From: Squalus acanthias
Lineage: Eukaryota
Direction of reading: 5' to 3'
NCBI GenBank assembly: GCA_030390025.1
Contig: CM059432.1
Coordinates: forward strand, 31,932,001-31,996,000
DNA: 64,000 nt
Shown here: positions 338 to 63,791 of the stretch, piece by piece
Numbering within the stretch: position 1 is the first letter of the stretch
How the letters are laid out: the number at the start of each line of letters is the position of its first letter
Notes under the pieces: generated by a model
The model's database searches: none
Told to the model about the DNA's origin: nothing
What the model saw: only the letters and a program-made list of their open reading frames with translations
Made by a program: the position numbers and the translations under genes

Positions 338-349
338 GTGAGTCTGAGA

Positions 350-976: not shown

Positions 977-1046
977 TCAAACTTGCTCCATTCTGAGTCT
1001 CTGTATCTCAAACTTGCTCCATCCTGAGTCTCTGTATCTCAAACTT
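977..1046. repeat. 31-bp tandem duplication (~2.3 units)
   Basis: TCAAACTTGCTCCAT(T/C)CTGAGTCTCTGTATC at 977 and 1008, partial at 1039. Confidence 0.9.
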
Positions 1047-4890: not shown

Positions 4891-4893
4891 CTT

Positions 4894-9780: not shown

Positions 9781-10225
9781 TACGTGGATAGACTAGAGAA
9801 GCTGGGGTTGTTTTCCTTGGAGCAGAGAAGGTTGAGAGGAGATTTGATAGAGGTATTCAAAATCATGATGGGTCTAAACAGAGTTGATAGAGAGAAACTG
9901 TCCCCATTGGCAGAAGGGTCGAGAACCAGAGGACACAGATTTAAGGTGATTGGCAAAAGAACCAAGGGCGACATGAGGAAAAACTTTTTTCGGCAGCGAG
10001 TGGTTAGGATCTGGAATGCACTGCCTGAAAGGGTGGTGGAGGCAGACTCAATTGTGGCTTTCAAAAGGGAATTGGATAAGTACCTGAAGGGAAAAAAAAT
10101 TGCAGGGCTCCAGGGAAAGGGCGAGGTAGTGGGACTAGCTGAAGTGCTCTTGCAGAGAGCCAGCATGGGCTCAATGGGCCAAATGGCTTCCTTCTGTGCT
10201 GTAAACGTTGTATGTTTCTATGATT
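9781..10225 (+). mobile_element. CR1-type LINE 3' end, same subfamily as 8567-9780, head-to-head with it
   Basis: YVDRLEKLGLFSLEQRRLRGDLIEVFKIM...WNALPE followed by the 3' UTR. Confidence 0.9.
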
Positions 10226-14655: not shown

Positions 14656-15030
14656 TGGTGCACGATGCCTCCTCATTTTCTCGACCTCTCTGCAGCCTTT
14701 TTACGGTTGACCACACCGCCCTCCTCCGTTGTCTAACTCAGTGGGACTGCTTTCACTTGGTTCCATTCTTGCCTATCCAACCATAGCCATGGCATCCCCA
14801 GCAATTGCTTCTCCGCCTGTCTCTAAACTGTTACCAATGGAGTCCCCCAGTGATCTGTCCTTGCCCTCTCCTTTTCTTATCTACATGTTGCCCCCCTGGC
14901 GATACAGCCGGCACAGGCTCGACGGGCCGAATAGCCACCTTCTGTGCTGTAACGATTCTGTGATATCATCTGAAGATTGAGGTCAGGGTCCACATGTACG
15001 CTGATGACATCCAGTTCAACCACACCACAA

Positions 15031-15477
15031 GAAAAGAAAGACTTGCATTGATATAGCGCCTTTCACGACCACCGGACGTCTCAAAGCGCTTTACAGCCAA
15101 TTAAGTACTTTTTGAAGTGGAGTCACTGTTGTAATGTGGGAAACGCGGCAACCAATTTGCGCACAGCAAGCTCCCACAAACAGCAATGTGATAATGACCA
15201 GATAATCTGTTTTTGTGATGTTGATTGAGGGATAAATATTGGCCAGGACTCCGGGGATAACTCCCCTGCTCTTCAAAATATTTCCATGGGATCTTTTACG
15301 TCCACCTGAGAGAACAGACGGGGCCTCGGTTTAACGTCTCATCCAAAGACTGCACCTCCGACAGTGCACTGGAGTGTCAGCCTAGCTTTATGTGCTCAAG
15401 TCCTTAGAGTGGGATTTGAACCCACAACCTTCTGACTCAGAGGCGAGTGTGCTACTAACTGAGCCACAGCTGACACT
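15031..15477 (-). mobile_element. tRNA-derived Deu-domain SINE (SacSINE1-like)
   Basis: A/B-box head on the minus strand; GACGTTAAACCGAGG...AAAAGATCCCATGG...GTCCTGGCCAA core. Confidence 0.85.
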
Positions 15478-16994
15478 ACTCTCGTGATCACCACACTGCC
15501 TCTGTTGTCAGACTGCTTGTCAGGCATTAAGTCCTGGATGAGCTGCAATTCCCTCCAGTTAAAATTGGTAAGACTAAGCCATCATCTTTGGCCTCCATCA
15601 CAAGTCCTTGTTGCAATTTACCCACGTCACAATTTACATCCCTCTCCCCGGCCACTGTCTCAGGTTGAACTAGACTGTTCTTAACCACACCGTCCTATTT
15701 AACTCATACCTGGCCTCTTGTCCAACCCCAAGCCCTTTGCCCCACCATTGGTGGCCGTGCCTTCAGCACTTTGGAATTCCCTCCCTAAACCTCTTTGCCT
15801 CTCCACCTCCTTCTCCTCCTTTAAGACCCTCCATAAACTCCACCTTTTTGACCAAACTTTGTCAGCCGTCCTAATATATCCTCCTTTGGCTCAGTATCAG
15901 ATTTTGTATGATTACACTACACTTCTGTGAAATGAATTGGAATGATTTTCTACGTTAAGTTGTTGTTGTGCAAGTTATAATTAACAGTGTGACATCCCAC
16001 GATAGATCCTGCAACTTTTTATGGTTGCCGACTATTGTACGATTTGCTGCCCAAGTACCACAGTTTTCCATGAAAAGCCACAGAGGCAGTGGAAATGCTG
16101 GTATGGAAGTGATAACAAATCACTCCCCCTAGATGGGAGTAATTGTGTCAGAGATTTCCACATCTGAGTGCACAAAATGCAGCCCTTCCAGCTCACTTGT
16201 GTGCGCATCAGAAGATGATACTGGGTATCCAGAATTTGCTAAAGAACAGCAGTCTTAATCGAGAGTTTAGATGATTATTGTAAACCACGCAGTGTCATGC
16301 TAGATGTCGGAAGAAACCCTCTGTTTAGATTTCAGCACTTAGCTCCTATTATTATTTGCGTTTCATGAAGCTTATTAGCACGCGAGTGCACGGTGTGCAG
16401 GATAATTATATCACAGGTTCCAAGCAGCTCATGATTACTGTTTAAGTCGACGGTTACTTGATATTTTGAAATGGGAAAATTCCCAGTTGTACCTATTAAT
16501 GTAACCCTGCACTGCATACCTGCAATTTATGTTTGAGCTTTATAGTCTGGGCCATGACATTTTATCACATCATGTTTTCCATTTATGAATTATCTACGCA
16601 GCATATTTGACTACATAACAGATAAAAATAGAACATTCTGGAAGTACACAGCAGATCCATCAGCATCTGAAAAGAGATGTCACATGAGAAAAAACTATTG
16701 ATTTTTCTTTAGAGACTCTTCATCCTAGTTATTTAAGAGTGTACTTGAAATGTTGAAGCCATCTTTTTTTCTCTGCAAGGCTTTTTTGCAGCCTTTTCTG
16801 TTTTAATTTCAGATTTCCAACATTTGCAAGTTTATTTTTTGTCTCCATCACTTAAGTATGTTTTAAAAGGGCTACCCTCATTCTGTAATAGTGAGGGAGA
16901 GCACATAAATTTTGTTTGCATGAAAATGAAGTAAGGATGGAAGAATATTTGATTTTGTGGTTAGTTCAGATATAAACATAATCATTAATTATCA

Positions 16995-18540
16995 GCAAAA
17001 GAGGAGGCAGCAGCAATGTTGAATAGGATAAAATGAGATAAAGAGGAGGTACTTAAAAGATTGGCAGTCCTCAAAGTAGAAAAGTCACCTGGTCCGGATT
17101 AGGTTACTGAGGGTAGTAGGGGTGAAATTGCGGAAGTTCTGCCCACAGGCTTCCAATCCTCCTTGGATATGGGGGTGGCGCCAGAGGACTGGAGGATTGT
17201 AAATGTTACAAAAGGGGCGAGGGATAAACCCGGTAAATACAGGCCAGCCAGCCTAATGTCGGCGGTGCGGAAACTTTGAGACAATAATCCAGGACAAATT
17301 TAATTGACATTTGGAAAAGTATGGGCTAATAAATGAAAGTCAGCAAATAGTGTTTGACTGACTTGATTGTGTTCTTTGATAAAGTAACGGAGAAGGTTGA
17401 TGAGGGTTAGTGTGGTTGATGTTGTGTATATGGACTTTCAAAAGGTGTTTGACAAAGTACCACATAGTAGACTTATTAGCAAATTTAAAGCCCATGGGAT
17501 TAAAGGGACAGTGGCAGCATGGATACAAAATTGGCTAAGGGATAGAAAGCAGTGAGTAGTGGTGAGTGGTTGTTTTTCAGACTGGAGGCAAGTATACAGT
17601 GGTGTTCCCCAGGGGTCAGTGTTGGGGCTACTGCTCTTTTTGATGTATATTAAAGACCTGGACTTGGGTATACAGGGCATAATTTCAAAGTTTGCAGATG
17701 ACGTGAAACTCTGAACTGTAGTAAACAATGAGCAGGGTAGTAACAGACTTCAGGAGGGCATAGTGAAATGAGCAGACACAAGGCAGATGAAATTTAACGC
17801 AGAGAAATATGAAGTGATGCATTTTGGTGGGAAGAATGAGAGGCAATATGAATTAAATGGTACATATTTTAAAGGGGGTGCAGGAACAGAGAGGCCTGGG
17901 GTGTATGTACACAAATTATTATTAAGAGGAATAGGGTACAAAAGCAAGGAAGTTATGCTAAACCTTTATAAAACACTGGTTAGGCCTCAGCTGGAGTATT
18001 GTGTTCAGTTCAGGGCACCACACTTTAGGAAAGATGTCAAGGCCTTGGAGAGGGTGCAGAAGAGATTTACTGAAATGATACCACAGATGTGGGACTTCGG
18101 TTATGTGGAGAGACTGGAGAAGCTGGAGTTGTTCTCCTTCGAGCAGAGAAGGTAAAGGAGATATTTGATAGAGGTGTTCAAAATCATGAACAATTTTGAG
18201 AGAGTAAATAGGGAGAAACAGTTTCCAGTGGCATAAGGGTCAGTAACTAGATGAGACAGATTTAAGGTAAGTGGCAAGAGGACCAGAGGTGACATGAGAC
18301 AACATATTTTTACACAGCGAGTTAAGTTGTGGTGGTCTGGAATGCACTGCCTGAAAGGGTGGTGGAAGCAAATTCAATAGTAACTTTCAAGAGAGAATTG
18401 GATAAATACTTGAAGGGAAAAAATTTACAGGGCATGGGGAAAGAGCGGGGGAGTGGGATTGATTGGATAGCTCTACTAAAGAGCTGGCACAGGTACGATG
18501 GGCTGAATGGCCTCCTGTGTTGTATCATTCTATGATTCTA
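16995..18540 (+). mobile_element. CR1-type LINE RT/3' fragment, frameshifted
   Basis: RT motifs; LYKTLVRPQLEYCVQF; TCTATGATTCTA tail. Confidence 0.9.
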
Positions 18541-18711
18541 AAGCTGCCTCGCTGAAATTAATCTCTTGCTCTATACATGCCACAGACACCACCTAGAGGA
18601 CATTTCCAGTACTACTGAAATTTTGTGGCCTACTGAATGTATTAATGTTTTAGAAAATCTAAGGTGAAAAAAAAGTTTATCATTTTTATGCAGTTTTTTT
18701 TTAATTTGTAG

Positions 18712-18927
18712 CTTTTTGTATCAGCGGAAACACCTGGCTCAAATATTCAAGCTCCTGGACAAGTCCAGCAACTGCTACCTCAGCCAACACCAAAAGTACC
18801 TGCTGCTGCTGCTCAAGCTAATCAGATGCCTACTATTCAGCCTTCAGTAATACCAGTCCCGATACCAGTGGCAGCGCCAGACCCCAGCCAGCAAGCTGCA
18901 GCTCAGCATCAACTACCTGCATCCCAG
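18712..18927 (+). CDS. OXSR1: OXSR1 internal coding exon, Pro/Gln/Ala-rich linker (LFVSAETPG...HQLPASQ, 72 aa)
   Basis: T-rich tract + AG at 18710-18711; CAG|GTATG donor; 216 nt open, phase 0/0; begins LF like the equivalent human exon. Confidence 0.85.
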
Positions 18928-19639
18928 GTATGCTACATTTTAGAAATAGCTTAAATAGTGAGAGCATTTATCTCTTTGCTTCATAAGCTCCTAAAAACAG
19001 TAATTTGACTGTAATTCCCAGATTTTGTATTTCAGTGGTAGGAGCTATAACAGCACTTGTCTTAACTGTTGAAAGCGCTTTGTTAATTATGAATGCTGCA
19101 ACTTGTCTGTGATGCTACTGTTTTGAACAAGTTAAAATGAGAACAAATATTTGAGTTTATGTTGAAGTTTGGATCCCACAAAAATGTTTCTACAGCCTCC
19201 CTTTCATTTAGAAATGAAGCACATCCTTGAGCATGTCTCCAGTAATTCATGATGGATTGTACTTCACTCTTTGTAGCAGTGAATTAATGCAAAGACCAAT
19301 CCAGTTTTAAATTGTCTAATGTAAAATATAGATTTTTTTTGTTTGCTTTTTATCCCTTTGGTGTGGTAATCTAGATCATTCCTGTTGAGAAATTATGTGA
19401 TGTGCATGATTTAAAAGCGACCTTGGCCCCTCAACACAACTGAAGCTGTGCCAGTTTTTGTAGAGCTTTTGTTTTCTTTGTTTCCCCTGCCCAGAAATTC
19501 CCTGCACCAAATACACCCTGTCTAGATGAGCAGGGAGACAAACAGCCGACTCCCAACCCTCTAATCTTGTCACTTAGTAACCATCTCTTAGGAAAGGGCA
19601 CATGTTCAGGGTTGTGAAAAGCAGTTTTAGGACTTGTGT

Positions 19640-19858
19640 CAACAACACCCCTTTTGTTCTTTTATTCCTCCCCCCAGCCTCCCCCTTGCTTTTTTTATCT
19701 TTCATTTCCTGCTTTTTTTCTCCGTTCTGACGAAGGGTTTCGACCTGAAACGTTAACTCTGTTTCTCTCTCCACGGATGTTGCCTGGCCTGCTGAGTTTT
19801 TCCAGCGTTTTCTGTTTCAGTTTTCCAGCATCTGCAGTATTTTGCTATTGTATTAGTG
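19640..19858 (+). mobile_element. Short Penelope-like insertion with a minimal hammerhead ribozyme core
   Basis: 14-bp TSD TTTAGGACTTGTGT (19626-19639, 19859-19872); GTT-CTGACGA-A-GGGT(TTCG)ACCT-GAAA-CGT-T-AAC at 19724-19757. Confidence 0.8.
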
Positions 19859-21139
19859 TTTAGGACTTGTGTTCTTTACACAGGGCATCATCAGTTGGAA
19901 AGGGTTGATGGGAAGCATGGTTGAGACCAGGGCATTTAAAAATTGATTAGATGCTACAATGGGAAGATGGTAGGGGTCGGTACTCTGGAAGGATGAGATC
20001 AAATAGGTCGAACCTTGCAGTGTGTGTCCTGGGAGAATTGCCCTCCTATTACTGTCTCTCCAAATTCAGAATTTTCTTTTATGTTTCCACATTGATGAAC
20101 ATTCTTGCAGTATTTGAGAGAAGCATCTGTTGTATATTGCAGTGTTGCTAGCCTTTGGAATGTTTCATATTTGAGCTTTTAAGTATTTTTGTATCAAATA
20201 TAAATAGTGTTTGGACAACAAAACCCATAGGTGAAGTTTTAAGAGTTAAAATTCATATGGCTTTGGTATCCGAAACAGGCAAACTATAATGATTTGAATT
20301 TTCAGAATTGAAATCCCACCTCTCTCCCCTCCTCTTGTTAAATCAAAACCCGTGCACATATATGAACTTTCCAGTAGGGTCACTGGATATCAACCGAGAG
20401 TGGAAACCGTGGTACATTTCCTCTACCCCACCCCCTTCTCCCTATATTGTGGCCAATTAGAAGACCCCTAACTACTGCCCTAGCTCCTATCAGCGAATTC
20501 CTCACAGATTAGGGTTGGAATCTTGCTTGGCTTCGGTGATTCCATAATCTGACATTCTCTCAGAGCAGTGGTCGTAGGGAGCAGTCATTCTTGTCTCTTA
20601 ATCACTGGTGCAATAAGAATAGGAAGTTCAAAGGCAAGGTCAGTTTGCAAAAGAGGCCTCACCGTTATCTGGTGTGGTTTAGGTTCTCTGATTCTAAATT
20701 GGAGTATGCGCAAGTTTGGAAACTTCTCCAGCTTCTCTTCAAATTTGATCTGCAGTTGGAGCATTTCACAACTATGTGCCAAAGTTTGTCATATGGCAGT
20801 GATACTCATAAACATTGCCTAAGACCGCTTTCCCCTTCACTTATGGCCTTTGGCAAATCTGCCGCTCTGTGCATATCTAGGCAACTATTCATTGCTTGTG
20901 AAGCTGTGGGATATCATCGGAGGTGGGATTCAATTTAGTTTCTTCTCCTTACTCTACTGTCCAGTAAGCGAATTCTATTAGAAAGCAGAGCTGTCCCAGC
21001 ATTCATAGAAGTGAAATGGTCCTATTAAAACAATAGCACTTGCAATCTTAATGGAACTATTTGCTGTGGGGTTTATTTCCCTGCTGATGGAAGCACCTGG
21101 CCCTCACTGTACAGTATGTGGATCATTGTTAAGGGTGGT

Positions 21140-21430
21140 CCTTGAACAAGATAAGAGGGCATAATCTTAAAATTAGAGCTCGGCCATTCAGGAGTAAAAT
21201 CAGGAAGCACATTTTCAAACAGAGTAGTGGCTATCTGGAACTCTCCCCAAAGGCTGTGGATGTTGGGTCAGTTGACATTTGCAAACTTGATATCAAGATT
21301 TTTGTTGGGTAAGAGTATCCAGAGATATGGAGCAAAGGCAGGTAAATGGGGTTGAGGTAAAGATTAGCTATGATCTAATTTAATGGCAGAACAGGCTTGA
21401 GGGGCTGAATGGCCTACACACATTCCTGTG
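21140..21430 (+). mobile_element. Old CR1 3' end fragment
   Basis: Degenerate RGH..L/WNSLP region plus 3' UTR GGGCTGAATGGCCT. Confidence 0.7.
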
Positions 21431-21661
21431 TAAGACACACCACTTAGATCTTTAACAAAAAAGATATTGAATAACAAAACTGGCATATGTGGGTTTACTG
21501 TTGCTTTAAATGGTCGACTTTGAATCTGCAATTTTGAGCTGGTATTGCTGTGATCTTTTCATAGGCTTGCGCAGCCTGCAGAATATTGATGCAGGTAGTG
21601 CTTTATCTTCCCCTTCCTCTTTCTTATATCCTTCTGCTGATTTGATTCTTGTTGCTTTCAG

Positions 21662-47506: not shown

Positions 47507-48051
47507 GTTTGTATTCTTGTTTATAATGTATAGAGTTCTGCCTTTGTTTACACTTGTGCGCTGCCGCCCCCGGAAATAGTGAAAAGTACCAAGGCGACCC
47601 CTCATTTGTTGCTTTGCAGGTCACCCACGAGATATTCACACACACGACGGTTAGAATCTGGAATTCTCCCACAGACTGTTGTTGAACCCAAGTTAAATAG
47701 CTTTAAAATGCAATTGGGACAGTTCCTGGAAAAAGAGAAATACTAAAGATATGGGAAGTGAGCAGGAAAGTGGCTCGTGGAGAAAAACACTGTCTTGATG
47801 GCAATATTGCCTGCTTCGATCAATAAAGTGGGTAATTGGGATTGTATACATTAAAACTGTATCCTATCCTTTCGGGACTTAGAACATCATCTGCTAAATG
47901 GTGCTGGTGAATAATGGATAGAGTATAAGCCACTGGAGCAAGCGCAGTTTAGTAGGACAACAGCTTCCTAGGACTGATCTGCTGGGAATGGATTTTGTAA
48001 TGAGTTCTGCTGGTTCAGGGTTGGGTCGATCCTTTCAATCTGGTTAGGCAG

Positions 48052-48330
48052 CATAGAGTCATAGTTATACAGCACAGAAAGAGGCCCATCGTGTCCACAC
48101 CGGCCATCAAGCTCTGTCTATTCTAATCCCATTTTCCAGCACTTGGTCCGTAGCCTTGTATGCTATGGCGTTTCAAGTGCTCATCTAAATGCTTCTTGAA
48201 TGTTGAGGGTTCCTGCCTCTACTGCCCTTTCAGGCAGTGAGTTCCAGATTCCAAGCACCCTCTGGGTATTGACCCTCTACTAAGGGGAACATTTCCTTTC
48301 TATCTACCCTATCTATGCCCCTCATAATTT
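48052..48330 (-). mobile_element. CR1 3' end fragment, same subfamily as 52006-53850
   Basis: CATAGAGTCATAG tail; reverse complement of the 53500-53850 region. Confidence 0.8.
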
Positions 48331-49348
48331 TGCACTTTTGAGAATCCCCGCGAAACCTTTTGTTTGTGATCTATTCGAACACTGGTATTTCATTCCCATG
48401 TTTGCATGTCAGTGGAACAGCTGAGTCTCAGTTGATGTGAAATGAGCTCTTCTAATGTGGGGAAATGGGTCAAGCGACAGGAGAAGTATTCCACTGAAGT
48501 GTTCCGTTTAACCAGCTTGTACTGCATTATAGTGATTGCTGTCCTGGAGCTTTCAATTTCCTTTTGGGAGCTCAGGAAGAGAGATCAATTTCCTTTTCTT
48601 GCATGTTGTTTGCTTTGGGTATTGCCCTCCTTTTGAGAGCTTAAGATGGGGTGATGCCATTTCAAATTGAAGACACGGACTTTCAGTAGGAGTGAGCTTG
48701 GGCCAAACGGAACTTTCCTCATTCCACATGTTATCGATTTACTAGTAAATATCTACTGGTGTTGCCATTGTTCAGTTGATTAATGTAAGTTATTTTTTTT
48801 ATATATGATGGTGATGGAGCTGGCAGCAATACTTCATAACTTGCTCCATATAATCACCTAGTGGCTAGAGCCTGCAACTACATTTTGACCGTTGACCGCA
48901 AACTTAAATTGAAATGTTGATAACAGGAAGTTATCGTTTTTGAATAAGTAGTGCACTAGCTACACAAGTATTTTGATGTGTATATATAATTAAATGATTT
49001 TAAAATTGTGCGAAATAGCCACTAATTTGCTTAACATTCTGGACTTTAACAACTATCCAAAAATAAACGTGAGCATGATATAGGCTGATGGAGGGTTATG
49101 TCTTTGAAGAAAATATTAGCTTTTGTTTCAAACTCTATATCGGACCCAAATGGAAGAAAACACAAAACGCCAGAGACACATTTCATTCAAAATGATGTAT
49201 CCTGGTTAATTGTAAACACATGTCTATTTTACAGTAGATTTTTAATCTTAAAGAAAAAGAAAGTGACACACTAACCAGACCATCACTTCTCCAATAGTAC
49301 GTCGACACTCACTTCTACATCCAAGATCCCACCCAGTTTAGAGACACT

Positions 49349-50232
49349 CTGCCCTTCTTCAGGCCTACATCAGATGACTGCACAGTGTTCAGTTCCATTT
49401 GCTACTCCTCAGATAATGAAGCAGTCCATGCCTGCATGCCGCAAGACCTGGACAACATTCAGGCTTGGGCTGATAAGTGGCAAGCAATATTTGTGCCACA
49501 CAAGTGCTAGGCAATGACTGTCTCCAACAACTGGGAGTCTAGCCACTGCCCCTTGACATTCATTGGCATTACCATAACTGAATCCCCCACCATCAACATT
49601 CTGGGGTTTGCCATTGCCCAGAAACTTAATTGGACCAGCCACAAAAATACTGCGGCAACAAGAGCAGGTCAGAGGCCAAGTATTCTATGACGAGTGTCTC
49701 CCCTCCTGACTCCCCAATTCTACAAGGCACAAGTCAGGAGTGTGATGGGATACTCTCCACTTGCCTGGATGAGTGCAACTCCAACAACACTCGAAGCTCG
49801 ACACCATCCTGGACAAAGCAGCCCGCTTGGTTGATACCCCATCCACCACCGGCGTACCATGGCTGCAGTGTGTAGCATCTACAAGATGCACTGCAGCAAC
49901 TTGCCAAGACTTCTTTGGCAGCACCTCCCAAACCTACAACCTCTACCACCTAAAAGGACAAGGGCAGCAGGCATATGGGAACACCACCAACTCCAAGTTC
50001 CCCTTTCAAGTTACACACCATCTTCACTTGGAAATGTAGTGCCGTTCCTTCATCGTTGCTGGGTCAAAATCCTGGAACTCCCTACCTAACAGCACTGTGG
50101 GAGTACCTTCACCACGCGAACTGCAACGGTTCAAGAAGGTGGCTCACCACCACTTTCTCGAGGGCAAATTGGAATGGGCAATAACTGCTGGACTTACCAG
50201 CGACGCCCACATCCCAGGAATGAATAAAAAAA
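49349..50232 (+). mobile_element. 3' fragment of a poly(A)-tailed CR1/L2-group LINE distinct from the HER1-type copies
   Basis: Degenerate DLDNIQAWADKWQ, YKAQVRSVM and LDTILDKAARL motifs; ends ATGAATAAAAAAAA. Confidence 0.8.
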
Positions 50233-51384
50233 ATATAGCAAGATTGGAGCCTTTATTGCTGGCTGTTACGGTTGGTTTGGAAGAAAAATGGCAGCCGCCT
50301 TGCTTCCACCCGCTTCTGAGGGGTCCACGCAATATTCCCTGTAATTCTTTTTTGGTGCGTGGCCCGTTCAAATTTGTGCACGTGCGGTTTCTCCCATGTA
50401 TTAAATTGTGTCTTATAATACTCCTGTGAAGCACCTTGGGATGTTTTACTACGTTAAAGGTGCTATATAAATACAAGTTATGTAAAAGCCAGTGAGCAGC
50501 CTGCGCGGGACCTGCAGACCACCGTGCGGCAGCGCAGCTTAACGGGAACGTTGGTCCCGCGATAGCCCCCATTTTGGACAGATCGGCAGAGCTGCCATTG
50601 CCCGCACTCTGCAGATATGGAAATGAGGCAGATCGTGACGTCAAAGAGTGTGCAACGCTGATTTGATGCACAATCTGCCATTTTGGACATCGCCGCTCCA
50701 TTTAATGCCCTCTCCGAGTCACAAGCAGCTGACCGTGCACTCAGCAGCAGGAAGGACCCCACACCAGCGCTATTTAAAGGAACCGTCAACAACTTGCAGC
50801 TGACTTGCTTTTTCATTTGTCCTTGCTCTTTGTAAGTTTATGAAATTGTTTGGAGCTTTCTAGAGTGGGTTAAGATAACTAAAGTAACAGGAAGTGTTGC
50901 TGCAAGTGGAGAACACCTTGCTTCTCATTTAAAGGGTTCTGCTCACACCGCTTGCTCCTAGTCATGAGGGCTCTACTTGCAATCCCCCTCACTCTCGAGT
51001 ATGACACGGAGATGGAGCGGAGGCAGCGAAGAGGAGGCCAAGATGCTTGCAAAGGGAGGAGGAGGAGGGGTAGAAGGGCTCTCAGTGGAGGGCTTACCCA
51101 CCTCGGGTCTTCCAAGAGCACTTCTTCTACCTGCACTTAAGCCAGGAGCAGTGTATTAGGAAGCTCCATTTGAACAAGGAGGTGGTCACAAAACTCTGCC
51201 ACCTCCTGCAACCAGCCCAACAGCCTCAGAGCAGGACAACAGGTCTCCTAGTGGCCCTCAAGGTCACCATGGCCCTCAATTTTTTCACCACCGGATCCTT
51301 CCAGTCTAGAGCAGGAGTATTAGCTAACATCTCCCAGTTCGCCGTCCATCACTGCATCCAGGAGGTCACAAAGGCTCTGTACTC

Positions 51385-54300
51385 ATAGAATCATAAACAT
51401 TTATGGCACAGAACTAGGCCATTTGGCCCATTGTGTCTGTGCCGGCCGAAAAAGAGCTATCCAGCCTAATCCACTTTGCAGCTCTTGGTCTGTAGCCCTG
51501 TAGGTTGCAGCACTTCAAGTGCATATCCAAGTACTTTTTAAATGTGATGAGGGTCTCTGCCTCTACCACCCTTTCAGGCAGTGAGTTCCAGACCCCCACC
51601 ACCCTCTGGGTGAAAAAAGTCCCCTCTAATCCTTCTACCAATTACTTTAAATCTATGCCCCCTGGTTATTGACCTCTCTGCTATGGGAAATAGGTCCTTC
51701 CTATCCACTCTATCTAGGCCCCTAATAATTTTATACACCTCAATTAAGTCTCCCCTCAACCTCCTCTGTTCCAAAGATAATAATTCCAGCCTATCTAATC
51801 TTCCCTCATAGCTAAAATTCTCCAGTCCTGGCAACATTCTCAAATCTCCTCTGTACTCTCTCTAGTGCAATCACATCTTTCCTGTAATGGGGTGACCAGA
51901 ACTACATGCAGTACTCTAGCTGTGGCCTAACTAGTGTTTTATACAGTTCAAGCATAACCTCCCTACTCTTGTATTCTATGCCTCGGCTAATAAAGGAAAG
52001 TATCCTGGCGGGCAAAATAAAGGAAAATCCCAAGGTGTTTTATAAGTATATTAAGGGCAAGAGGATAACCAGGGAAAGAGTAGGGCCCATTAGGGACCAA
52101 AGTGGCAATCTGTGTGTAAAGCCAGAAGATGTAGGTGGGGTTTTAAATTAATATTTTGCATCTGTGTTCACTATGGAGAAGGACGATGTAGGCATAGAAA
52201 TCAGGCAGGGGGATTGTGATATACTTGAACAAATTAGTATTGAGAGGGAGGAGGTACTAGTGGTTTTAGCAGGCTTAAAAGTGGATAAATCCCCAGGCCC
52301 AGATGAGATGTATCCCAGGCTGCTGTGTGAGGCAAGGGAGGAGATTGCAGGGGCTCTGACACATTTTCAGAATCTCTCTGGCCACAGGGGAGGTGCCGGA
52401 GGACTGGAGAACAGCTAACGTAGTACCATTATTCAAGAAGGGTAGTAGGGATAAACCAGGGAATTACAGGCCAGTGAGCCTAACATCAGTGGTAGGGAAA
52501 TTATTGGAAAAAATTCTGAGGGACAGAATTAGTCTCCACTTGGAGAGGCAAGGATTAAATCAAGGATAGTCAGCATGGTTTTGTCAGGGGGAGATCATGT
52601 CTGACCAATTTGATTGAATTTTTTGAGGGGGTGACTAGGTGTGTGGATGAGGGTAGTGCAGTTGATGTGGTCTACATAGACTTCAGTAAGGCTTTTGACA
52701 AAGTCCCGCATGGGAGACTGGTCAAGAAGATAAAAGCCCATGGGATCCAGGGCAACTTGGCACATTGGATCCAAAATTGGCTTAGTGGCAGGAGGCAGAG
52801 GGTGATGGTCGAAGGTTGTTTATGGTGACTGGAAGCCTGTGTCCAGTGGTGTACCGCAGGGATCGGTGCTGGGTCCTTTGCTGTTTGTAGTGTACATAAA
52901 TGATTTAGATATGAATGTAGGAGATATGATCAGTAAGTTTGCAGATGACACAAATTGGTGGGGTGGTAAATAGCGAGGAGGGAAGCCTCAGGCTACAGGA
53001 CGATATAGACGGGATGGGCAGAACAGTGGCAAATGGAATTTAACCCTGAAAAGTGTGAGATGATGCATTTTGGAAGGACTAACAAGGCAAGGGAATACAC
53101 AATACATGGTAGGACCCTAGGAAGGACAGAGGATCAGATGGACCTTGGCGTGCATGTACATAGATCCCTGAAGGCAGCAGGACAGGTAGATAAGGTGGTT
53201 AAAAAGGCATATGGGATACTTGCGTTCATTAGCCGAGGCATAGAATATAAGAGCAGGGAGGTTATGATGGAGCTGTACAAAACGCTAGTTAGGCCACAGC
53301 TGGAATACTGTGTGCAGTTCTGGTCGCCACACTATAGGAAGGATGTGATTGCATTGGAGAGGGTGCAGAGGAGATTCACCAGGATGTTACCTGGGCTGCA
53401 GCGCTTCAGCTATGAAGAGAGACTAGACAGGCTGGGGTTGTTTTCCTTAGAGCAGAGAAGGCTGAGGGGGGACCTGATTGAGGTTTACAAAATTATGAGG
53501 GGCATAGATAGGGTAGATAGAAAGGAACTTTTCCCCTTAGTAGAGGGGTCAATAACCAGGGGGCATAGTTTCAAGGTAAGGGGCAGGAGGTTTAGAGGGG
53601 ATTTGAGGAAAACCTTTTTCACCCAGAGGGTGGTTGGAATCTGGAACTCACTGCCTGAAAGGGTGGTAGAGGCAGGAACCCTCACAACATTCAAGAAGCA
53701 TTTAGATGAGTACTTGAAACGCCATAGCATACAAGGCTACGGACCAAGTGCTGGAAAATGGGATTAAAATAGACAGGGCTTGATGGCCCGCGTGGACACG
53801 ATGGGCCGAAGGGCCTCTTTCTGTGCTGTATAACTCTGACTCTATGACTCTATCCCGTATGCCTTCTTAACCATTTTATCTTCCTGTCCTGCTACCTTCA
53901 GGGATCTGTGGACATGCACTCCAAGGTCCCTCTGTTCCTCTACACTTCTCAGTATCCTATCATTTCTTGTGTATTCCCTTGCCTTGTTAGCCCTCCCCAA
54001 ATGTATTACCTCACACTTCTCCGGAATGAATTCCATTTGCCACCTTTCAGCCCACATGACCAGTCCATCTTCTTGCTGTTTACAGCTTTCTTCCTCACTA
54101 TCAATCATCTGCAAACTTCTTAATCATGTCCCCTACATTAAAGTCTAAGTCACTGATATATACCACAAAAAGCAAGGGACCAAGTACTGAGCCCTGTGCA
54201 ACCCCACTGGAAACAGCCTTCCAGTCACAAAAACACCCGTTGACCATTACCCTTTGCTTCCTGTTACTGAGCCAATTTTGGATCCAACTTGCCTCTTTCC

Positions 54301-54589
54301 CTTGGATCCCATGGGCTTTTACTTTTCTGACCAATCTGCCATGTGGGACCTTGTTAAAAGCCTTGCTAAAATCCATGTAGACTACACTAAACGCGCTACC
54401 CTCATCAACCCTCCTTGTTACCACCTCAAAAAATTCAATCAAGTTAGTCAGACACGACCTTCCCTTAATAAATTCATGCTGACTGTCCTTGATTAATCCA
54501 TGCCTTTCTAAATGATGATTAATACTGTCGCTCAGAACGTCGTCAGAGAGGATTGGAAAATGATGACCAGAGCCTCTGCTATTTCCTCC
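51385..54589 (-). mobile_element. CR1-type LINE inserted in the Harbinger transposase
   Basis: 8-bp TSD CTGTACTC (51377-51384, 54590-54597); RT motifs DFSKAF, QGSVLGP, FADD. Confidence 0.92.
52006..53850 (+). mobile_element. CR1-type LINE nested inside the preceding LINE
   Basis: 5-bp TSD TATCC (52001-52005, 53851-53855); 244-aa RT C-terminal ORF; CTCTATGA-type tail. Confidence 0.92.
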
Positions 54590-54956
54590 CTGTACTCTAG
54601 GAGAAGGGAATTCATTGTCTTCTCTCTGAGCAGAGAGAAGCAAGAGGAGCATACATGTGGCTTTGCCAGGATATCAGGGTTCCCCATGGTGCAGGGTGCC
54701 ATCGACTGCACACACGTGGCTTTACAGACACCACATACCAATCCTGAGATGTTCCATAACTGCAAAGGCTACCACTCACTTAATGTGCAGTTGATGAGAG
54801 ACCATGCCCAGTGCATCATGATGGTTAATGCCTGATATCCTGGCAGCTGTCATAATGCCTTCATCCTGTGCCAGTCCAGTGTACCAGCAATCTTCCAGCA
54901 CCACGTCAAACCCGAGGATAGCTGCTCGGAGACTAGGGCTATCCGCTCTACACCTG

Positions 54957-55177
54957 ATGCGGAGATGCCGGCGTTGGACTGGGGTGGACAAAAATGAGAA
55001 GTCGCACAACACCAGGTTATAGTCCAACAGATTTATTTAAAATTACAAGCTTTCGGAGCTGTCGCCCCTTCCTCAGGTAAAGTAACTTTACCTGAGGAAG
55101 GGGCGACAGCTCCGAAAGCTTGTAATTTTAAATAAATCTGTTGGACTATAACCTGGTGTTGTGCGACTTCTCATTTT
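54957..55177. mobile_element. Palindromic Penelope-like insertion with a hammerhead core on each strand
   Basis: 13-bp TSD CGCTC(T/G)ACACCTG; perfect 93-bp inverted arms 54991-55083 and 55085-55177. Confidence 0.85.
55088..55125 (+). ncRNA. Minimal type-I hammerhead ribozyme motif
   Basis: TTAC-CTGAGGA-A-GGGGC(GACA)GCTCC-GAAA-GCT-T-GTAA: stem I, CUGANGA, stem II, GAAA and a palindromic AGCT stem III. Confidence 0.75.
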
Positions 55178-55701
55178 CGCTCGACACCTGGCTGATGTCT
55201 CCCCTCCGCAACCCCACCACGCGTGGCCAGCACTCATATAATGACAGCCATGTTGCCACGAAGAAGCTCATTGAGCAGACCAACGCAGTGCTAAAACAAT
55301 GGTTCCGCTGCCTTGACCACTCAGGAGGAGCCCTCCAGTACACACTGGAGTGGGTGTCCCATTTCGTGTTGGTCTGCTGCACGCTCCACAACTTGGTCAT
55401 CATGAGGGCGCAGCCGTTGGCACTACGGGTTCTGGGACAACCTCAGGAGGAGGAGGAGGAAGAGAAGGAGGAGGTGGAGACAGGTAGCAGATCCCCATTC
55501 CGGACGTGCTGTCCGTGAGTGCCTCATCAGGTTCCAGGTCCAATGAATGAAACCCCAGATTTCCGTTGCTCACCACTTCCCCACTGTCACTGAACATCAC
55601 AGCGTCCTTTTGGGCACACAGCTGAAATGAGAGCCACCCCAAAATAAACATTCCAAATATAATTTATAAATTTATCAAATCAAAATCAAAATAACAGTCA
55701 A

Positions 55702-57528
55702 CTAATCACCCTTGTGCATTTCCTTAGTGTCTGTCTTTCGTGTTGCTTTTCCTACTGTAGTGCCCCTACGAAGTGCTGCCCCACTGGCTGCAGCATGGCT
55801 GGTGGAAGGCTGCTGACTTTCAGTGGGGGAGACTTCAGATGGACTTGCAGGATGACCTCGACTAGCTCGGGGCCTAGAAGGCCCGGCTGTAGACTCCACC
55901 ATCTCGGCCTGGGCAGCAGCTGGTTGGCTGACAGGCAGCAGCAAGGGCACCGGCGGGGTGGGAGTACGAATGCTGTCATCCTGAGAGAGGACAGCAGGTT
56001 CTTGCTCCACAGAGCCACTGCCACTGAGGCGGCACCTCAGCGTTCCGAGACATCTGTTGGGGGACAGATTTCTGGTGTGCTGTGAGACCCTGCAAGCCCC
56101 TTTCCACACTCATAAACCCAGCCACAATGGCAGCAGTCTGAGCTTCCACTGCAGCACTGAGATGTTGGGTTGCTTCCACCTGTGCTGCAATGGAAGCTGC
56201 GACATCGCCCATCACACGCAGCATCATGGCTGGGTCCACAAGGTCTCTCATGGAGTTGCCCATCACTTCCATCCCAGAAATCACAGGCTCCAAGCATAGC
56301 CCCATGCAATTTTGGAGCCGGACTCCTCCATGCTCCTTGACACTGACAAGAGGCTCTCTGGCAGGCTTGCCATTACACCTAACATTACTGTGTGCATGCC
56401 TATCATCCTTCTTCTGAAGGCCGCCCCATCAACATTATCACATGTGTCCTCTGCAGCAGAACACGTGTACGAACCTGCCCTCCAGGTAGCTGGTACCTGA
56501 GCTACCCTTTCCCCCTGGCCCGGCTGCAGCCCACTCGTACCCGGTGACTCACCACATGCAGATCCCGCCTCTATACTACCCTCAAGTCCGCACAGTACCA
56601 TTTTCTGAGCTGGTGCCTGCGAGTGTCAGATGCAGTGAAGGTGTGTCTTCTCCTCCTTCACTGTCCTCCTCCATCACTTCGGGGACTGGCTGGCCAGGTT
56701 GGAGTTTTGGGTATCTGAAAGGAGAAAGGCACAAAGGTCAGGTTGTGCTGAGGGGAGGGGGTAAAGTAAGATATCCATGTGTACACCATCAGCAGCTTGT
56801 GAGAAGAGATTGTGGGATGAGGGGGATGTGAGAAGAAGGATTAGGTATAAGCATACCGTCATCATCAGCAATGCTATCAACTTCCCCACTAGCCACAGAC
56901 TCTGTGACTGCCCCTCCAATGATCTCCAGCACTGCTTCCTCCAGCTCCGTCAGGTTCTGCAGACGGGCTTCCCCTCCACCCTGCTGCTGCTCCTGCTGAT
57001 TATGAGCAACCTCTGCCTGCAATAGAGAAGGAAGTGTGTCAGTGAGTGTGGTGCAATGTATTTGGGTGATGTGCCTGCCATGATTGAATAGCTGGCAGTG
57101 TGTGCAAGGTATGAGATGTGGATGTGAGTGTTGCAGCAGTGGTAAGTGTGTGAGGGTGAAGTGAAGTGATGATTGTGAGGTATGAGTGGTGATTGCTAGA
57201 GATTGTTGGTAGGTGAGTGATGGGGGTGTGGTGCATTGAGCAGTGTGTGAGGCTAGTGATGCAGATGGTGGGATATGGCATTTGATGATTCACTCACCTT
57301 GATCACTTGTGTGAGGTCATTAAACCTTTTGCGGCACTGGATCCAGGTCCTAGGGACAACACTCGTCACACTGCCTGCTTCAGCGATCTCCTCCCTCAGC
57401 CTTCTTCTGTTCTGCCTTGAAGGCCTCTTGCCCCCCTGCGGGTAGAGGACCTGATGGTGTCTTTGAACCCCCAGGACCAAGGCTGCATTTGAAAATGTCC
57501 TTGCCCTTTCCCTTGGCTGTTGGGCCAT
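55702..57528 (-). pseudogene. Harbinger Myb/SANT-like DNA-binding gene, three exons (57528-57298, 57016-56857, 56714-~55702)
   Basis: MAQQPRERARTFS...PRTWIQCRKRFNDL; AAG|GTGAGT, TTGCAG|, G|GTATG and TTTCAG| sites in compatible phase; exon 3 frameshifted. Confidence 0.85.
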
Positions 57529-58215
57529 GGCTCTCTCCACAATAACAATGAGGTGCTTCTGCAACAAATCACCTCCCCTTTAAGTAGTGCAGAGAGCCTA
57601 ATTGGGCCAGTAGACTGCACCCGATATTGGCCACCCTGTTCAGTGCTAAGCAGCGTGTTTAGCGCTGAGATCAGCGCTGCAATCAATATAATGAGCAGGC
57701 AGCACAAATTTTGCATGCTGCCTGCACCACTTTGAACAGGCACGGGCACATAGCACTATGTGCTGCCCGCGCCCATTTTCGGGCCTTATCCAATGTCTAG
57801 GCCACAGTACCATCCAACTCCCCACCATTTGACAAACACACTCTCTTCCTCCAACCCTTCTGGTTCATACTGGTACTCGTCTCCATCTCCCCTTTCAATT
57901 CAACCTGGCCGCCTTCCCCTCCAGCCCAATTCAAACTGGTATTAATCTCCACCCCATCCTTATTTGAGCAGGCACTCTTCTTTGTTGTCATTTCCCCCCC
58001 CCCCCCCCCGAGTTCAAGCTGACACTTTCCTTCATCTGCCATTTCTCACCTACCTTTATAATTGATTCAATCTTCTCAAGTTAATCAATCTCCTTTTTAT
58101 TTGTTACATGCCGAGACCACTTTGTGTCATTAGCACCTTTGATACTATGACAACTACAGACACCCTTTTACCTATCATTCACAAATAGCACATGGTTCAA
58201 AAACAGATAAGAATT

Positions 58216-58645
58216 AAAAAACTTGCATTTATAGCACCTTCCATGACCTTGGGACATCCCAAAGTGCTTTGAAGCCAATGAAGTACTTTTGAAGTGTAGT
58301 CACTGTTGTAATATAGGAATTGTGGCAGCCAATTTGCTTCATCAAGGTCCCACAAACAGCAATGAGATAATAACCAGATAATCTGTTTTAGTGATGTTGG
58401 TTGACGGATAGATATTGGCCAGGACACTGGGGAGAACGCCACTGCTCTTCTTTGAATAGTGACATGGGTTCGTTTACATCCACTTGAGAGGGTTAGCGGG
58501 GCCTAGGTGTAACGTCTCATCCAAAAGAGAGCACCTCCAACAGCAGTGCACTGAAGTGACAGTCTGAATGATGCACCCAAGTCTCTGGAGTGGGGTTTGA
58601 ACTCTCAACTTTGAGTCAAAGGCGAGAGTGCTATCACTGAGCCAA
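58216..58645 (-). mobile_element. Deu-domain SINE
   Basis: Collinear with 15031-15477. Confidence 0.8.
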
Positions 58646-58961
58646 ATCTGACACCTCATCCCTATGGGACTCCACTGGTTACAACTTCCAGGGCACAGCA
58701 CTTCTAACCATTTCATTTCCATTTACTCTGTGTTCTGTTGTTAAGCCAATTCTTAATTCCTTGATCGTCTCACATGAGGAACTTTGTCCGAAGCACTTTT
58801 AAAAATCCATGTGACAGTTTCCTAATGGAGAAGGTTGAGCTGAGTCTTCCAAACTTCTGACAGTACTATTGCATAGTGAGATTACATTGCCTGCAACAAG
58901 ACTTCCCCCAAAACATCTAGTTGGAAATGGAAGCAAAACCATGCCCATACAACTACCATAC

Positions 58962-60478
58962 ATAGAGACATAGAAAAATAGGAGCAGGAGTAGGCCCTTC
59001 GAGCCTGCTCCGCCATTCAATATGATCATTGCTGATCCTCTCTCCCCATACCCCTTGATGCCTTTTGTGTCTAGAAATCGATCTATCTCCTCCTTAAATA
59101 TATTCAGTGACTTGGCCTCTACAGCTTTCTGTGGTAGAGAATTCCACAGGTTCACCACCCTCTGAGTGAAGAAATTTCTCCTCATCTCAGTCCTAAATGT
59201 CCTACCCCGTATCCTGAGACTGTGACCCCTCATTCTAGACCCCCCAGCCAGGGGAAACATCCTCCCTGCATCCAGTCTGTCTAGCCCTGTCAGAACTTTA
59301 TACGTTTCAATGAGATCCCCTCTCATTCTTCTAAACTCTAGTGAATACAGGCCTAGTCGACCCAATCTCTTCTCCTACGACAGTCCTGCCATTCAAGGAT
59401 CAGTCTGGTGAACCTTCGCTGCACTCCCTCTATGGCAAGTATATCCTTTCTTAGGTAAGGAGACCAAAACTGCACACAGTACTCCAGGTGTGGTCTCACC
59501 AAGGCCCTGCATAACTGTAGTAAGACATCTTTGCTCCTGTACTCAAATCCTCTTGCAATGAAAGCCAACATACCATTTGCCTTCCTAACTGCTTGCTGCA
59601 CCTGCATGTTTGCTTTCAGTGACTGGTGTACAAGGACACCCAGGTCCCTCTGTACATCAACATTTCCCAATCTACCACCATTTAAATAATACTCTGCCTT
59701 TCTGTTTTTCCTACCAAAGTGGATAACTTCACATTTATCCATGTTATACTGTATCTGCCATGTATTTGCCCACTTACTCAACTTGTCTAAATCGCCTTGA
59801 AGCCTCTTTGCATCCTCCTCACAACTCACAATCCCACCTAGTTTCGTGTTGTCAGCAAACTTGGAAATATTACATTTGGTTCCCTCATTCAAATCATTGA
59901 TATATATTGTGAATAGCTGGGGCCCAAGCACTGATCCCTGCGGTACTCCACTAGTCACCGCCTGCCACCCTGAAAAAGACCCATTTATTCCTACTCTCTG
60001 TTTCCAGTCTGTTAACCAATTTTTAATCTATGCCAGTATATTACCCCCAATCCCATGTGCTTTAATTTTGCACACCAACCTCTTATGTGGGACTTTATCA
60101 AAGGCCTTCTGAAAATCCAAATACACCACATCCACTGGTTCTCCCTTATCTATTCTACCAGTTACATCCTCAAAAAACTCCAGTAGGTTTGTCAAACACG
60201 ATTTCCCTTTCATAAATCCATGTTGACTTTGTCTAATCCCATTGATATTTTCTAAGTGTCCTGTTATCACATCCTTTATAATAGACTCTAGCATTTCCCT
60301 ACTACTGATGTTAGGCTAACCGGTCTGTAGTTCCCTGTTTTTTCTCTCTCCTTTTTTAAATAGTGGGGTTACATTTGCCACCCTCCAATCTGCAGGAACT
60401 GTTCCATAATCTATAGAATTTTGGAAGATGACAACCAATGCATCCACTATTTCCATGGCTACCTCTTTTAGTACTCTG
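58962..60478 (-). mobile_element. CR1-type LINE RT/3' fragment related to 11656-14655
   Basis: [47 protein letters not shown] tail. Confidence 0.92.
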
Positions 60479-61587
60479 TACATTTAGTACATCCTCCACT
60501 TCTCAGACCAGAGACTGGAAACACATAATACTATTCCTGACCTTGGCAGGCATCAGCATGAAAGTACCCCAGGACCTGTCACTTGCAGCCTTACCCAGTT
60601 CTTGATCCAGGCAGCAAGGTGGGGCATTTGTCAGCTCTGCCACAGAACCCCTCCCACCACAACCAGTATGTGGACAAATAACCTTTGGAACCTGTGCCAA
60701 ACTAAATAAGTAATACGTCTACTGTACATGGAGCTAGGAAAACGATAGGAATTTTGGGCCCATTCTAGCAAGCTGATAATGAACCATTCCAAACTTCCAC
60801 AACAAAAGGAACCCCCAGATGGACCTATGAATCCCACCCTGATCAACCTCCTTACTCCCCACAGATACCAAGCACTGCACCAAATGGGACTTATCAACCC
60901 ACTCCTGTGTGACCTGAAGCCTCACAACCAGTACTGAACACAACCAATAAGTCCACATAAGTATAATTATATTAGACCCTCAACAGAGGTATCTACAAGT
61001 AATTTATGAGAAAGATAGAAATTGCTTTTAAAGTACCTGTCATGACCTCTAGGACAGCAGGCACATTTAAGGGATCTGGCCAGGGCACATGGCACAGGGC
61101 AGCAGTGGAGAAAACTTGGGTAAATTCAGAGAAAAATCAGTAAAAATAAGTTTTATTATGACTAAAACTAAAACTCAAGAAAAGAAGCAGGGGTCTTAAA
61201 ACAGTTAAGGTAAATAACAACCCACAATTATTTATACAGTTCAAAAACTCAATTTTTATGGGGCTCACCATTATACTCTTAACTCCTAAATAGTTAAAGG
61301 TAAAATTTAAGAAACTGTGTTTATTATTGTAGCTCCAGCTACTTACCTCCTCTATAATGGTAGGATAATAAAACTTGTTGGAGATTCTGCACAAGGTAAC
61401 AGTTGTGATCTTTTAGTAAACAATGCCTTGGTGTGTGACCTCAGTCAGTCTTCAGGGGATTATCAGTGTAGTAACTCGGTCAGTGTGCTGCCCCCCTTGC
61501 TCCTTTTCAAACTTGGACTGATGTTTGCTGCAGTATAAAGAATGTGGTCCTCACACCAATACCTAAATATCCAGGTCCCCTTAAAAA

Positions 61588-62020
61588 TGGTACCAGGGAT
61601 GAGGGACTTAATTGTGTGGAGAGACTAGAGAAATTGTAATTGTTCTCCTTAGAGCAGAGAAGGTTAAGGGGAGATTTAATAGAGGTATTCAAAATTATGA
61701 GGGGTTCTGATAGAGTTAATAGGGATAAACTGTTTCCACTGGCAGGAGGGTTGGTAACCAGAGGACACAAATGTAAGGTAATTGACAAAAGAACCAGAGG
61801 GGAAATGAGTTGTTATGATCTGGAATGCACTGCCTGAAAGGGTAGTGAAATCTGCTTCAATAGTAACATTCAAAAGGGAATTGGACAAATACTTGAAGGG
61901 GAATAAATTGTAGGGTTATGAGGAAAGAGTAGGGGAATGGGACTGATTGGATAGCTCTTTCAAAGAGCCAGCACAGGCACAATGGGCCGAATGGCCTCCT
62001 ATGCAGTGCAAGTTCTGTGA
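61588..62020 (+). mobile_element. CR1 3' end fragment
   Basis: FSLEQRRLRGDLIEVFKIM...TRGH plus 3' UTR. Confidence 0.85.
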
Positions 62021-62795
62021 ACTTGCACTGCCTTCATTTCTTTTCCTATTGAAAATCAGACCCATTAACTGATACACATCATATCTGTGAAATCAGAACG
62101 GCATGCAGCGCACGCCAGATGCGTGTTGATACTGTAGGTGTGATGCGCGCACGTATCGAGAGCCTGTTCTTTAGTAAGAAAATAATGGGAACCTTGTTTT
62201 TTCTTCTCTCTATATTCAGGAGGGAATCAGATTTTCCTGATTCACCACCTGAAGAAAATCCGTGAATTTATTGGTAGAAATCGGTAAAACACTATTTTAA
62301 TGATCCTTACTTGTGTGAACAATAATTTGTCAGAGGACATGTTTGATTCGACAAAGCACTTTCCTGGTGCAAAAACACACGAGCACCCTGTGTGACTTCT
62401 CATTTGTCACCATTTTCTAATCCTTTGTCATCATCAGCGTAACACACCATACTCATTTGCATAAGTGAATTGACTGACTTGCATTCCAGAGAAGTAAATT
62501 TATTGGTTTCTCCTAAGACCATAAAGACCACAGAGAGAAAAGGCCATTTGGCTTTACTCAGCTTTACTCCATGCAGAGTCCATGTATGATTATCGATTAT
62601 GGACCCCCAGTCCCCACCACTACCTGATGACCCAACTATTTTAAGGCTGGGAATTTCCTCTAAGGGGCACCCACTCCACTTCTGTAACTTCGCCACCAGT
62701 GTGCCGGGAACCCAATGAATGCAGTGGACCAGGAGAAGCTTCGAGGAAACTTCTGGCCTAAGTTGTATCTGAGTAACTCTCCCTTCTCCATGAAT

Positions 62796-63483
62796 GTGAT
62801 GCGGAGATGCCGGTGTTGGACTGGGGTGGACAAAAATGAGAAGTCGCACAACACCAGGTTATAGTCCAACAGTTTTATTTGAAATCACAAGCTTTCGGAG
62901 CGGCTGCTCCTTCACCTGACGAAGGAGCACAGAATCCACAGAATCCACACAGTGCAGATGGAGGCCATTTCGGCCCATCGAGCCTGCACCGACACATATC
63001 CCACCCTATCCCCGTAACCCCACGTATTTAATCCCCCTAACACTAAGGGTCAATTTATCATAGCCAAATCAACCTAACCCGCACATCTTTGGACTGTGGG
63101 AGGAAACCGGAGCACCCGGAGGAAACCCACGCAGACACGGGGAGAATGTGCAAACTCCACACAGACAGTCACCCGAGGCCGGATTCGAACCCGGGTCCCT
63201 GGCGCTGTGAGGCCACAGTGCTAACCACTATGCCACCGTGTTGCTCCGAAAGCTTGTGATTTCAAATAAAACTGTTGGACTATAACCTTTGTCCACCCCA
63301 GTCCAACACCGGCATCTCCACATCATTCTTAGGGACATAACCTACTTGCCTAAATCCAGTGAGGTTAGGCACAGGTTAGCAACAGACAAGGCTTAGTGAC
63401 CCCAAATGTGCTCAGGGGCACTACTGGGGTTTAACCCACTTAAACTGAACAGAATACTGCTGGTGTTGTGCGACTTCTCATTT
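62796..63483. mobile_element. Second palindromic Penelope-like insertion, with a SINE and an extra segment inside
   Basis: 12-bp TSD TTCTCCA(T/C)GAAT (62784-62795, 63484-63495); left arm nearly identical to 54957-55075. Confidence 0.82.
62930..63241 (-). mobile_element. HE1-like (V-domain) tRNA-derived SINE
   Basis: Minus strand: TGGCATAGTGG A-box, GGTTCGAATCC B-box, GTGTGGAGTTTGCACATTCTCCCCGTG V-domain, CR1-like 3' end and (GGATTCTGT)n tail. Confidence 0.9.
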
Positions 63484-63791
63484 TTCTCCACGAATAGGGA
63501 AGCAACTCCCTTTTAAAGGTGAGGGAAAAAGTTTTGTCCAATCTCTAGCCTTGCTCAAGACTTGTGAATTTTGTACTTGGGCCCTTTAGTTCTATGCTTG
63601 TTGTCCAGGGCAAATAGCTTGTTTGCTTCAATCTTATCCTGCCCTTTAATTTTTTTTTAAACAATCATTCTCTTTTCCCCCCGAGTCTTTTTCAGTGAAC
63701 ATAGGTTTAGTTGATTCGGTCTCCCTTCATTACTTCCCTCTTCTGTTGACTGAGCCCCTGTTTCTAACTGGGATTGCTTTTATCTCTACAG

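Follow-up and report, generated by a model that had tools for sequence, protein, structure and literature searches.

Intronic minimal hammerhead motifs in Squalus acanthias as truncated pseudo-LTRs of two Penelope-like element families

Minimal hammerheads are known from the pseudo-LTRs (pLTRs) of metazoan Penelope-like elements (PLEs), as reported by Cervera and de la Pena in 2014 (PMC4209133). According to the available text of that paper, single minimal hammerheads do not cleave, and the accessible sections of PMC11167929 report no cleavage of single motifs without protein. The motifs by which PLE proteins are recognized are taken here from the available part of PMC8557442. To account for the inverted arms of these elements, self-priming on an antisense template is proposed in the sections of PMC3846280 at hand. 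A biochemical system close to these elements is Poseidon of Anolis, studied in vitro by Frangieh et al. (2024; PMC11167929), whose available text describes two reverse transcription initiation sites flanking the tail, the use of uncut RNA as a template, the cutting and extension of both target strands, and a predicted protein dimer.

The window analyzed here, a 64,000-nt stretch of the genome of the shark Squalus acanthias, contains three motifs that a preliminary description had read as minimal type-I hammerhead cores, and both their letters and a descriptor search bear this out. The first occupies exactly 55088..55125 on the + strand and is composed of TTAC, CTGAGGA, an extra A, GGGGC-GACA-GCTCC, GAAA, GCT, T and GTAA, with a predicted cut after 55121. 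It lies in the tail-less arm of a palindrome, and its mirror copy is found in the tail-bearing arm at 55043..55080 on the - strand. The second (19724..19757, +) consists of GTT, CTGACGA, A, GGGT-TTCG-ACCT, GAAA, CGT, T and AAC, with a predicted cut after 19754, and is the only one of the three cores with neither an antisense arm nor an insertion. The third (62912..63259, +) is split in loop II: TCAC, CTGACGA, A and GGAGC (the last at 62924-62928) are followed, beyond a SINE of ~313 bp, by GCTCC, GAAA, GCT, T and GTGA, ending at 63259. The earlier cut positions (~55121 and ~19754) were recovered as the same predicted sites.

The CUGANGA...GAAA core and a NUH cleavage triplet are present throughout, interrupted by the insertion at 62.9 kb, and an extra nucleotide after A9 plus a palindromic remnant of stem III occur in both of the families to which the motifs belong. 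A descriptor of the minimal type-I hammerhead, in which the extra base after A9 was optional, found three motifs in the window (19727 +, 55092 + and 55076 -) and none in 200 dinucleotide-shuffled windows; without the extra A, only the 19.7-kb motif is returned. Rfam applied to the window gave no hammerhead at E <= 5, and only four weak, unrelated matches, as is expected of cores that lack stem III.

All three motifs lie within introns of two + strand genes, as had been proposed. Exons of an OXSR1/SPAK-type kinase are located on the + strand upstream of the window (locus L069), at ~290-338, and from 21662 to ~41460, including 21662-21727 and 33870-33924; the intronic interval at 339..21661 (+), which may still contain short exons, holds the 19.7-kb motif. 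The other two are situated in intron 1 of an SLC22-family gene (47507..63791, +), between an exon 1 that ends at 47506 and an exon 2 that starts at 63792. These host genes were recognized from shorter frames; Pfam, run on 102 of the 170 window ORFs of at least 75 aa, named no host gene. Among other content, the window has an apparently young 925-aa open frame with LINE endonuclease and reverse transcriptase (RT) domains at 11898-14672 (-), and two inverted LINE-like copies inside the OXSR1-like gene (1551-4175 and 27350-29937) that are 87-93% complementary and lie ~23-28 kb apart.

Judged from the sequence, the three motifs are clipped ends of two abundant, protein-coding PLEs. This is at odds with the preliminary description insofar as it had called the families non-coding, since both of them are ends of elements that encode RT and GIY-YIG. 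Its claim of two mobile families is supported, with family A at 55 and 62.9 kb and family B at 19.7 kb, and the suspected link to Penelope is borne out by the RT and GIY-YIG frames to which both families lead.

The family-A insertion at 55 kb is a solo inverted pLTR (54955..55177, -) made up of a ~36-nt tail and a perfect palindrome of 187 bp (54991-55177, centre 55084). The tail is unique within the copy, and in full family-A copies such a tail extends as far as the start codon of the ORF. A 13-bp target-site duplication flanks the insertion at 54944..54956 and 55178..55190, with one mismatch between its left and right copies. The element inserted into a decayed Harbinger-type DDE transposase (54512..55515, +), with PF13359 matched on both sides of the insert. 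A decayed Harbinger-type transposon is visible over ~51074-57579 of the window, with DDE_Tnp_4 pieces on the + strand and a Myb/SANT-like piece on the -. The 55-kb copy is young, as copies 100% identical to it occur elsewhere in the genome. It bears a hammerhead on both strands, and its element-sense, tail-bearing arm is on the - strand. Thus, the earlier statement that the motifs lie on the sense strand of both host pre-mRNAs is true of all three cores and uninformative for the palindrome, where such a position is automatic; the + strand is not the sense of the element itself at 55 or 62.9 kb, as the tail-bearing arm is on the - strand at both.

The 62.9-kb copy belongs to a sister subfamily of family A and is likewise an inverted insertion (62797..63491, -), with a 12-13 bp target duplication (one mismatch). 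Its - strand arm ends inside the hammerhead core. The SINE in loop II (62930..63242, -) is tRNA-headed, with A- and B-box-like motifs read directly on the - strand. In addition, the right arm holds a 176-bp patch of tail and flank (63286..63461, +) that is identical at 175 of 176 positions to a neighboring family-A copy ~1.7 kb downstream (locus L067, ~1015-1190), and that resembles the outcome of templated repair after the palindrome had broken.

Full family-A elements were found at two loci (L063 and L064) and consist of a pLTR with the hammerhead, a tail ending at the ATG, an 892-aa frame and a second pLTR; broken or shortened elements occur at L062 and L065. The hammerhead is ~110 nt upstream of the frame in full copies. 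The 892-aa protein matches RVT_1 of Pfam at E 1e-8, and its GIY-YIG domain is not matched at E <= 0.1. Motifs of the GxKF, DKG, CX4CxxC and CCHH-type GIY-YIG kinds were read by eye in the translation, and the endonuclease call relies on these together with similarity to the protein of locus L031, which matched PF01541. Searched with the Pfam GIY-YIG model, the genome yielded a single match, in a different PLE family. Loci L031 and L193 represent a third PLE family with broken frames, which is ~30% identical to family A and adjoins a family-A palindrome. A single ORF with RT plus, at its C-terminal end, GIY-YIG with CCHH, as found here, is the arrangement by which EN+ PLEs are recognized.

Family A has at least 16,324 copies in the 3.7-Gb genome searched (exact 32-mer matches), and its tail plus start codon has 2,979 matches genome-wide. 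Of the 100 copies listed first, 90 were surveyed for structure; all of them have an exact 32-mer and come from the initial 16.6 Mb of a single contig. In 85 of the 90, the 3' end falls at -3..+6 of the ATG. An inverted arm is present within 600 nt in 49 copies and within 1,400 nt in 54 (about 60%), and in 46 of the 49 it ends 0-10 nt into a U-run at the start of the tail. A target duplication of 12-15 bp was found in 50 of the 54 two-armed copies with one mismatch allowed. Direct or inverted pLTRs with a one-sided tail of 30-40 bp and a target-site duplication are likewise the architecture expected of EN+ PLEs. A variant core, U4C, occurs in 13 of 226 family-A arms, including both pLTRs of the long element at L065, the copy at L088, and others.

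Family B is a separate repeat; all 40 scored candidates match over ~150 nt at 94% identity or more. The window copy is a 5'-truncated pLTR with tail (19647..19858, +) between 14-bp target duplications (19626-19639 and 19859-19872). Before it lies a 7-nt stub (19640-19646) that matches the start of the inverted arms of other copies and is possibly an aborted second priming, the stub being too short for certainty. Inverted arms occur in 7 of 30 family-B loci, and Penelope frames lie upstream of the hammerhead, in the same sense, in 9 of the 30 (L166, L173, L178, L179, L182 and L185, and more weakly in three others). Broken RT and GIY-YIG frames of this family were found at loci L190-L192, and its protein is 31% identical to that of family A over 383 aa. 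The proteins of both families have a CX2-5CxxC between RT and EN, which is a Neptune/Nematis feature. Both are minimal-hammerhead PLEs, probably of Neptune type. Taken together, the motifs of the window are very probably pLTR hammerheads of two EN+ PLEs, left behind as short truncated insertions and likely inert.

How far the hammerhead fold is maintained in the parent elements can be judged from 226 parsed family-A arms, which represent 117 haplotypes. The core is nearly constant and the stem III palindrome AGCT is present in 224 of the 226, although conservation of the core is partly by construction, as the parser permitted one core mismatch; the family-B palindrome, ACGT, was selected for by the search. 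N7 is represented by all four bases, N17 by U or C only, and loop II varies in length and sequence, with these three differing between subfamilies while the core stays constant. Pair 3 of stem I shows the sole broadly two-sided change among the arms (TA 148, CG 52, TG 14). Pair 3 of stem II changes on one side through a wobble (AT 125, GT 98), and pair 4 of stem I is often unpaired (TA in 175 of 226). In an alignment of 35 distinct rows, 34 of them family-A haplotypes seen at least twice and one from family B, 96.4% of cells are paired; none of 500 shuffles was as high, and slid controls reached 28-46%. Seven pairs show two-sided change, five through the single family-B row and one through a single family-A row, which leaves columns 5/45 as the only broadly covarying pair. 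The earlier claim that the stems covary is overstated: within family A it applies essentially to pair 3 of stem I, and it is otherwise mostly a contrast between two unrelated families. Pairing of this kind favors selection for the fold in the parent elements, albeit with less covariation than the heading of the preliminary description suggests, and is silent on function at the window loci.

A series of steps may be proposed by which such palindromes arise. The enzyme of the element would make a staggered cut in target DNA, after which one DNA end would prime reverse transcription at the start codon and the other ~35 nt upstream, at the U-run. Both cDNAs would be copied from uncut RNA back toward its 5' end, likely a start site that follows a TATA box and precedes the hammerhead by ~10 nt. 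Their ends would then be joined head to head through microhomology. By analogy with described systems, the hammerhead in the element RNA would cut only as a dimer via its palindromic stem III, or with the help of protein. As for the template, arms with a start within 2 nt of the cut site are few (3 of 139), and 36 start 30-40 nt upstream. The scarcity of the former suggests uncut templates, as described in vitro in the available text of PMC11167929. Most long-pLTR clusters (e.g., L048, L036, L058 and L072) have a TATA-like box 35-45 nt upstream of the core. Among the 105 arms whose ends fall within 98 nt, 30 terminate 5-11 nt upstream of the core, a pile-up that subfamily differences may inflate. 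Stops ~30 nt behind a TATA-like box suggest run-off at a transcription start on uncut RNA. Priming from both cut ends seems reasonably likely, and the use of two different templates in some insertion events is slightly favored. That the hammerhead acts as a dimer handle is a tentative idea. So is the fuller scheme, in which both ends of the 12-15 nt staggered cut would prime at two sites on two RNAs in a dimeric particle, the stem III palindrome would pair these RNAs in the manner of a retroviral dimer signal rather than mainly cutting, and run-off cDNAs would anneal head to head.

Other origins of the palindrome have to be weighed against this sequence of steps. The 220-bp palindrome might itself be a non-coding, non-autonomous family of a MITE- or retrozyme-like kind, which would be transcribed and then replicated as an intact unit, as might be thought from 30 loci with 93-100% identity over ~220 nt and near-fixed ends. 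This is very unlikely, since the exact 55-kb centre was found only 35 times against at least 16,324 copies of the family, centres are heterogeneous in the 90-copy sample, and no tandem arrays like those of retrozymes were seen at these loci. Moreover, the 35 copies represent 32 independent insertions and several haplotypes, differing in N7 and loop, and have the centre in both orientations (20 GTAAC to 15 GTTAC, or 17 to 14 without four paralogues of one insertion), so that no one fixed centre is inherited with a haplotype; the same centre across haplotypes and orientations points to a palindrome rebuilt by microhomology rather than copied from one master. The four paralogues (L012, L018, L021 and L022) are on unplaced contigs, and the centre of L018 is flipped relative to the other three, which shows that a flipped centre can also arise once the element is in place, or through assembly. 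For this reason, centre flipping was downgraded as proof of two annealed cDNAs, and it gives some room to a second alternative, in which the inverted arm would result from self-priming fold-back of one cDNA, or from priming on an antisense template as proposed in the available text of PMC3846280, with mismatched arms produced by later patch repair. With stem II identical in 25 of 39 arm pairs, as compared with 8% at random and 18% within a class, the two arms of a pair resemble each other much more than chance pairing would give, and the 62.9-kb copy does carry a patch from its neighbor. Stem II haplotypes differ in 8 of the 39 pairs, each haplotype being seen at other loci, and one arm is the commonest haplotype in all eight, as conversion from abundant donors predicts. 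However, there are four multi-site discordant pairs among the 35 young same-centre copies, and in three of these (L202, L207 and L213) the arms represent sister haplotypes of the same age; a rare haplotype, found in 3 of 226 arms, takes part in two of the three. Locus L045 was excluded from this argument as probably two adjacent insertions. Furthermore, it is common for the tail-less arm to extend beyond its tail-bearing partner in the 5' direction (for example, L105, L118, L145 and L152), which fold-back of the first cDNA could not produce. The end of the tail-less arm also lies at a second, fixed site, in agreement with the two initiation sites reported in the accessible part of PMC11167929. 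Fold-back or antisense priming is accordingly a doubtful, if serious, contender to priming from both cut ends.

A different question is whether the motifs do anything in the RNA of their hosts. It might be supposed that the hammerheads in these introns retain activity or have been co-opted, and that they cleave the OXSR1 or SLC22 pre-mRNA. In favor of this, all three + strand cores are on the sense strand of + strand genes, and the 19.7-kb core is complete and has no antisense arm; it may be speculated that family-B RNA from other loci could supply it with a partner in trans. For the 55-kb copy, the palindrome would be sense in either orientation, and the 223 nt of the insert are predicted to form a single hairpin (-179 kcal/mol, z -27.8) in which stem II has a probability of ~1e-22 on either strand, under an equilibrium model that ignores RNA-binding proteins and helicases. 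Whichever side the palindrome is transcribed from, the antisense arm is made first, and in the host pre-mRNA this arm is predicted to sequester the motif by base pairing. This copy is also young and resides within a dead transposon. At 62.9 kb, the + strand core is split by the SINE in loop II and the - arm has no core. Both family-A motifs are thus predicted to be inert in host RNA. The 19.7-kb motif could fold, but it is a lone monomer with a stem I of 3 bp, and the reports on single minimal hammerheads cited above (no cleavage in PMC4209133, none without protein in PMC11167929, both as given in their available text) stand against activity. In free cofolding of two motif copies, the double-hammerhead fold was not the minimum, which is weak evidence either way, and contigs from four sequencing runs of uncertain kind over 14500-34400 consisted mainly of repeats and revealed no exons and no ends. 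Activity or co-option in the hosts is highly improbable, and the three motifs are likely inert passengers in host introns.

The hammerheads and their link to PLEs are already published, and what is new is the addition of two shark families to the known list. A literature search, conducted mostly without subscription papers or supplements, did not find the two-ended model or shark hammerheads. If the reading with two ends and two templates is true, it would account for both the inverted arm and the presence of a tail on one side only, the origin of which is still called undefined in the PLE papers as far as their available text goes. The minimal hammerhead would gain a testable role, and under the fuller dimer scheme the shark genome, in its thousands of stumps, would directly document the insertion process. 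With its intact 892-aa frames and very young copies, family A is suited to the existing in vitro assay.

Compared with the hammerheads in the available text of PMC4209133, helix II is shorter here (4-5 bp, versus 7-8 bp in Schistosoma), and sharks are not named in that text. The shark families resemble the EN+ PLEs described in the accessible sections of PMC3846280, PMC8557442 and PMC8969392 in their head-to-head arms, tail on one arm only, palindromic junction and target-site duplication, and in the TATA and initiator-like motifs of the pLTR. Unlike those elements, family A is present in thousands of copies as stumps that consist of the pLTR alone, and its duplications are longer (12-15 bp, versus 8-10 bp in Adineta, per the same sources). 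The discordant arms argue against pure self-priming of the kind put forward in the available text of PMC3846280. As in Poseidon, two end sites flank the tail of family A, known here from genomic copies; in the sections of PMC11167929 at hand, however, the Poseidon initiation sites are 111-118 nt inside the ORF, whereas the distal site of family A is at the start codon, and the CX2-5CxxC linker of Neptune/Nematis, present in both shark proteins, is absent from Poseidon. Finally, the non-LTR retrozymes described in a bioRxiv preprint (10.64898/2026.07.22.740005) share, according to its available text, a type-I hammerhead, derivation from PLEs and short copies without protein; these form head-to-tail tandem arrays with at least two hammerheads in the same sense, whereas the copies in the window are solo or head-to-head.
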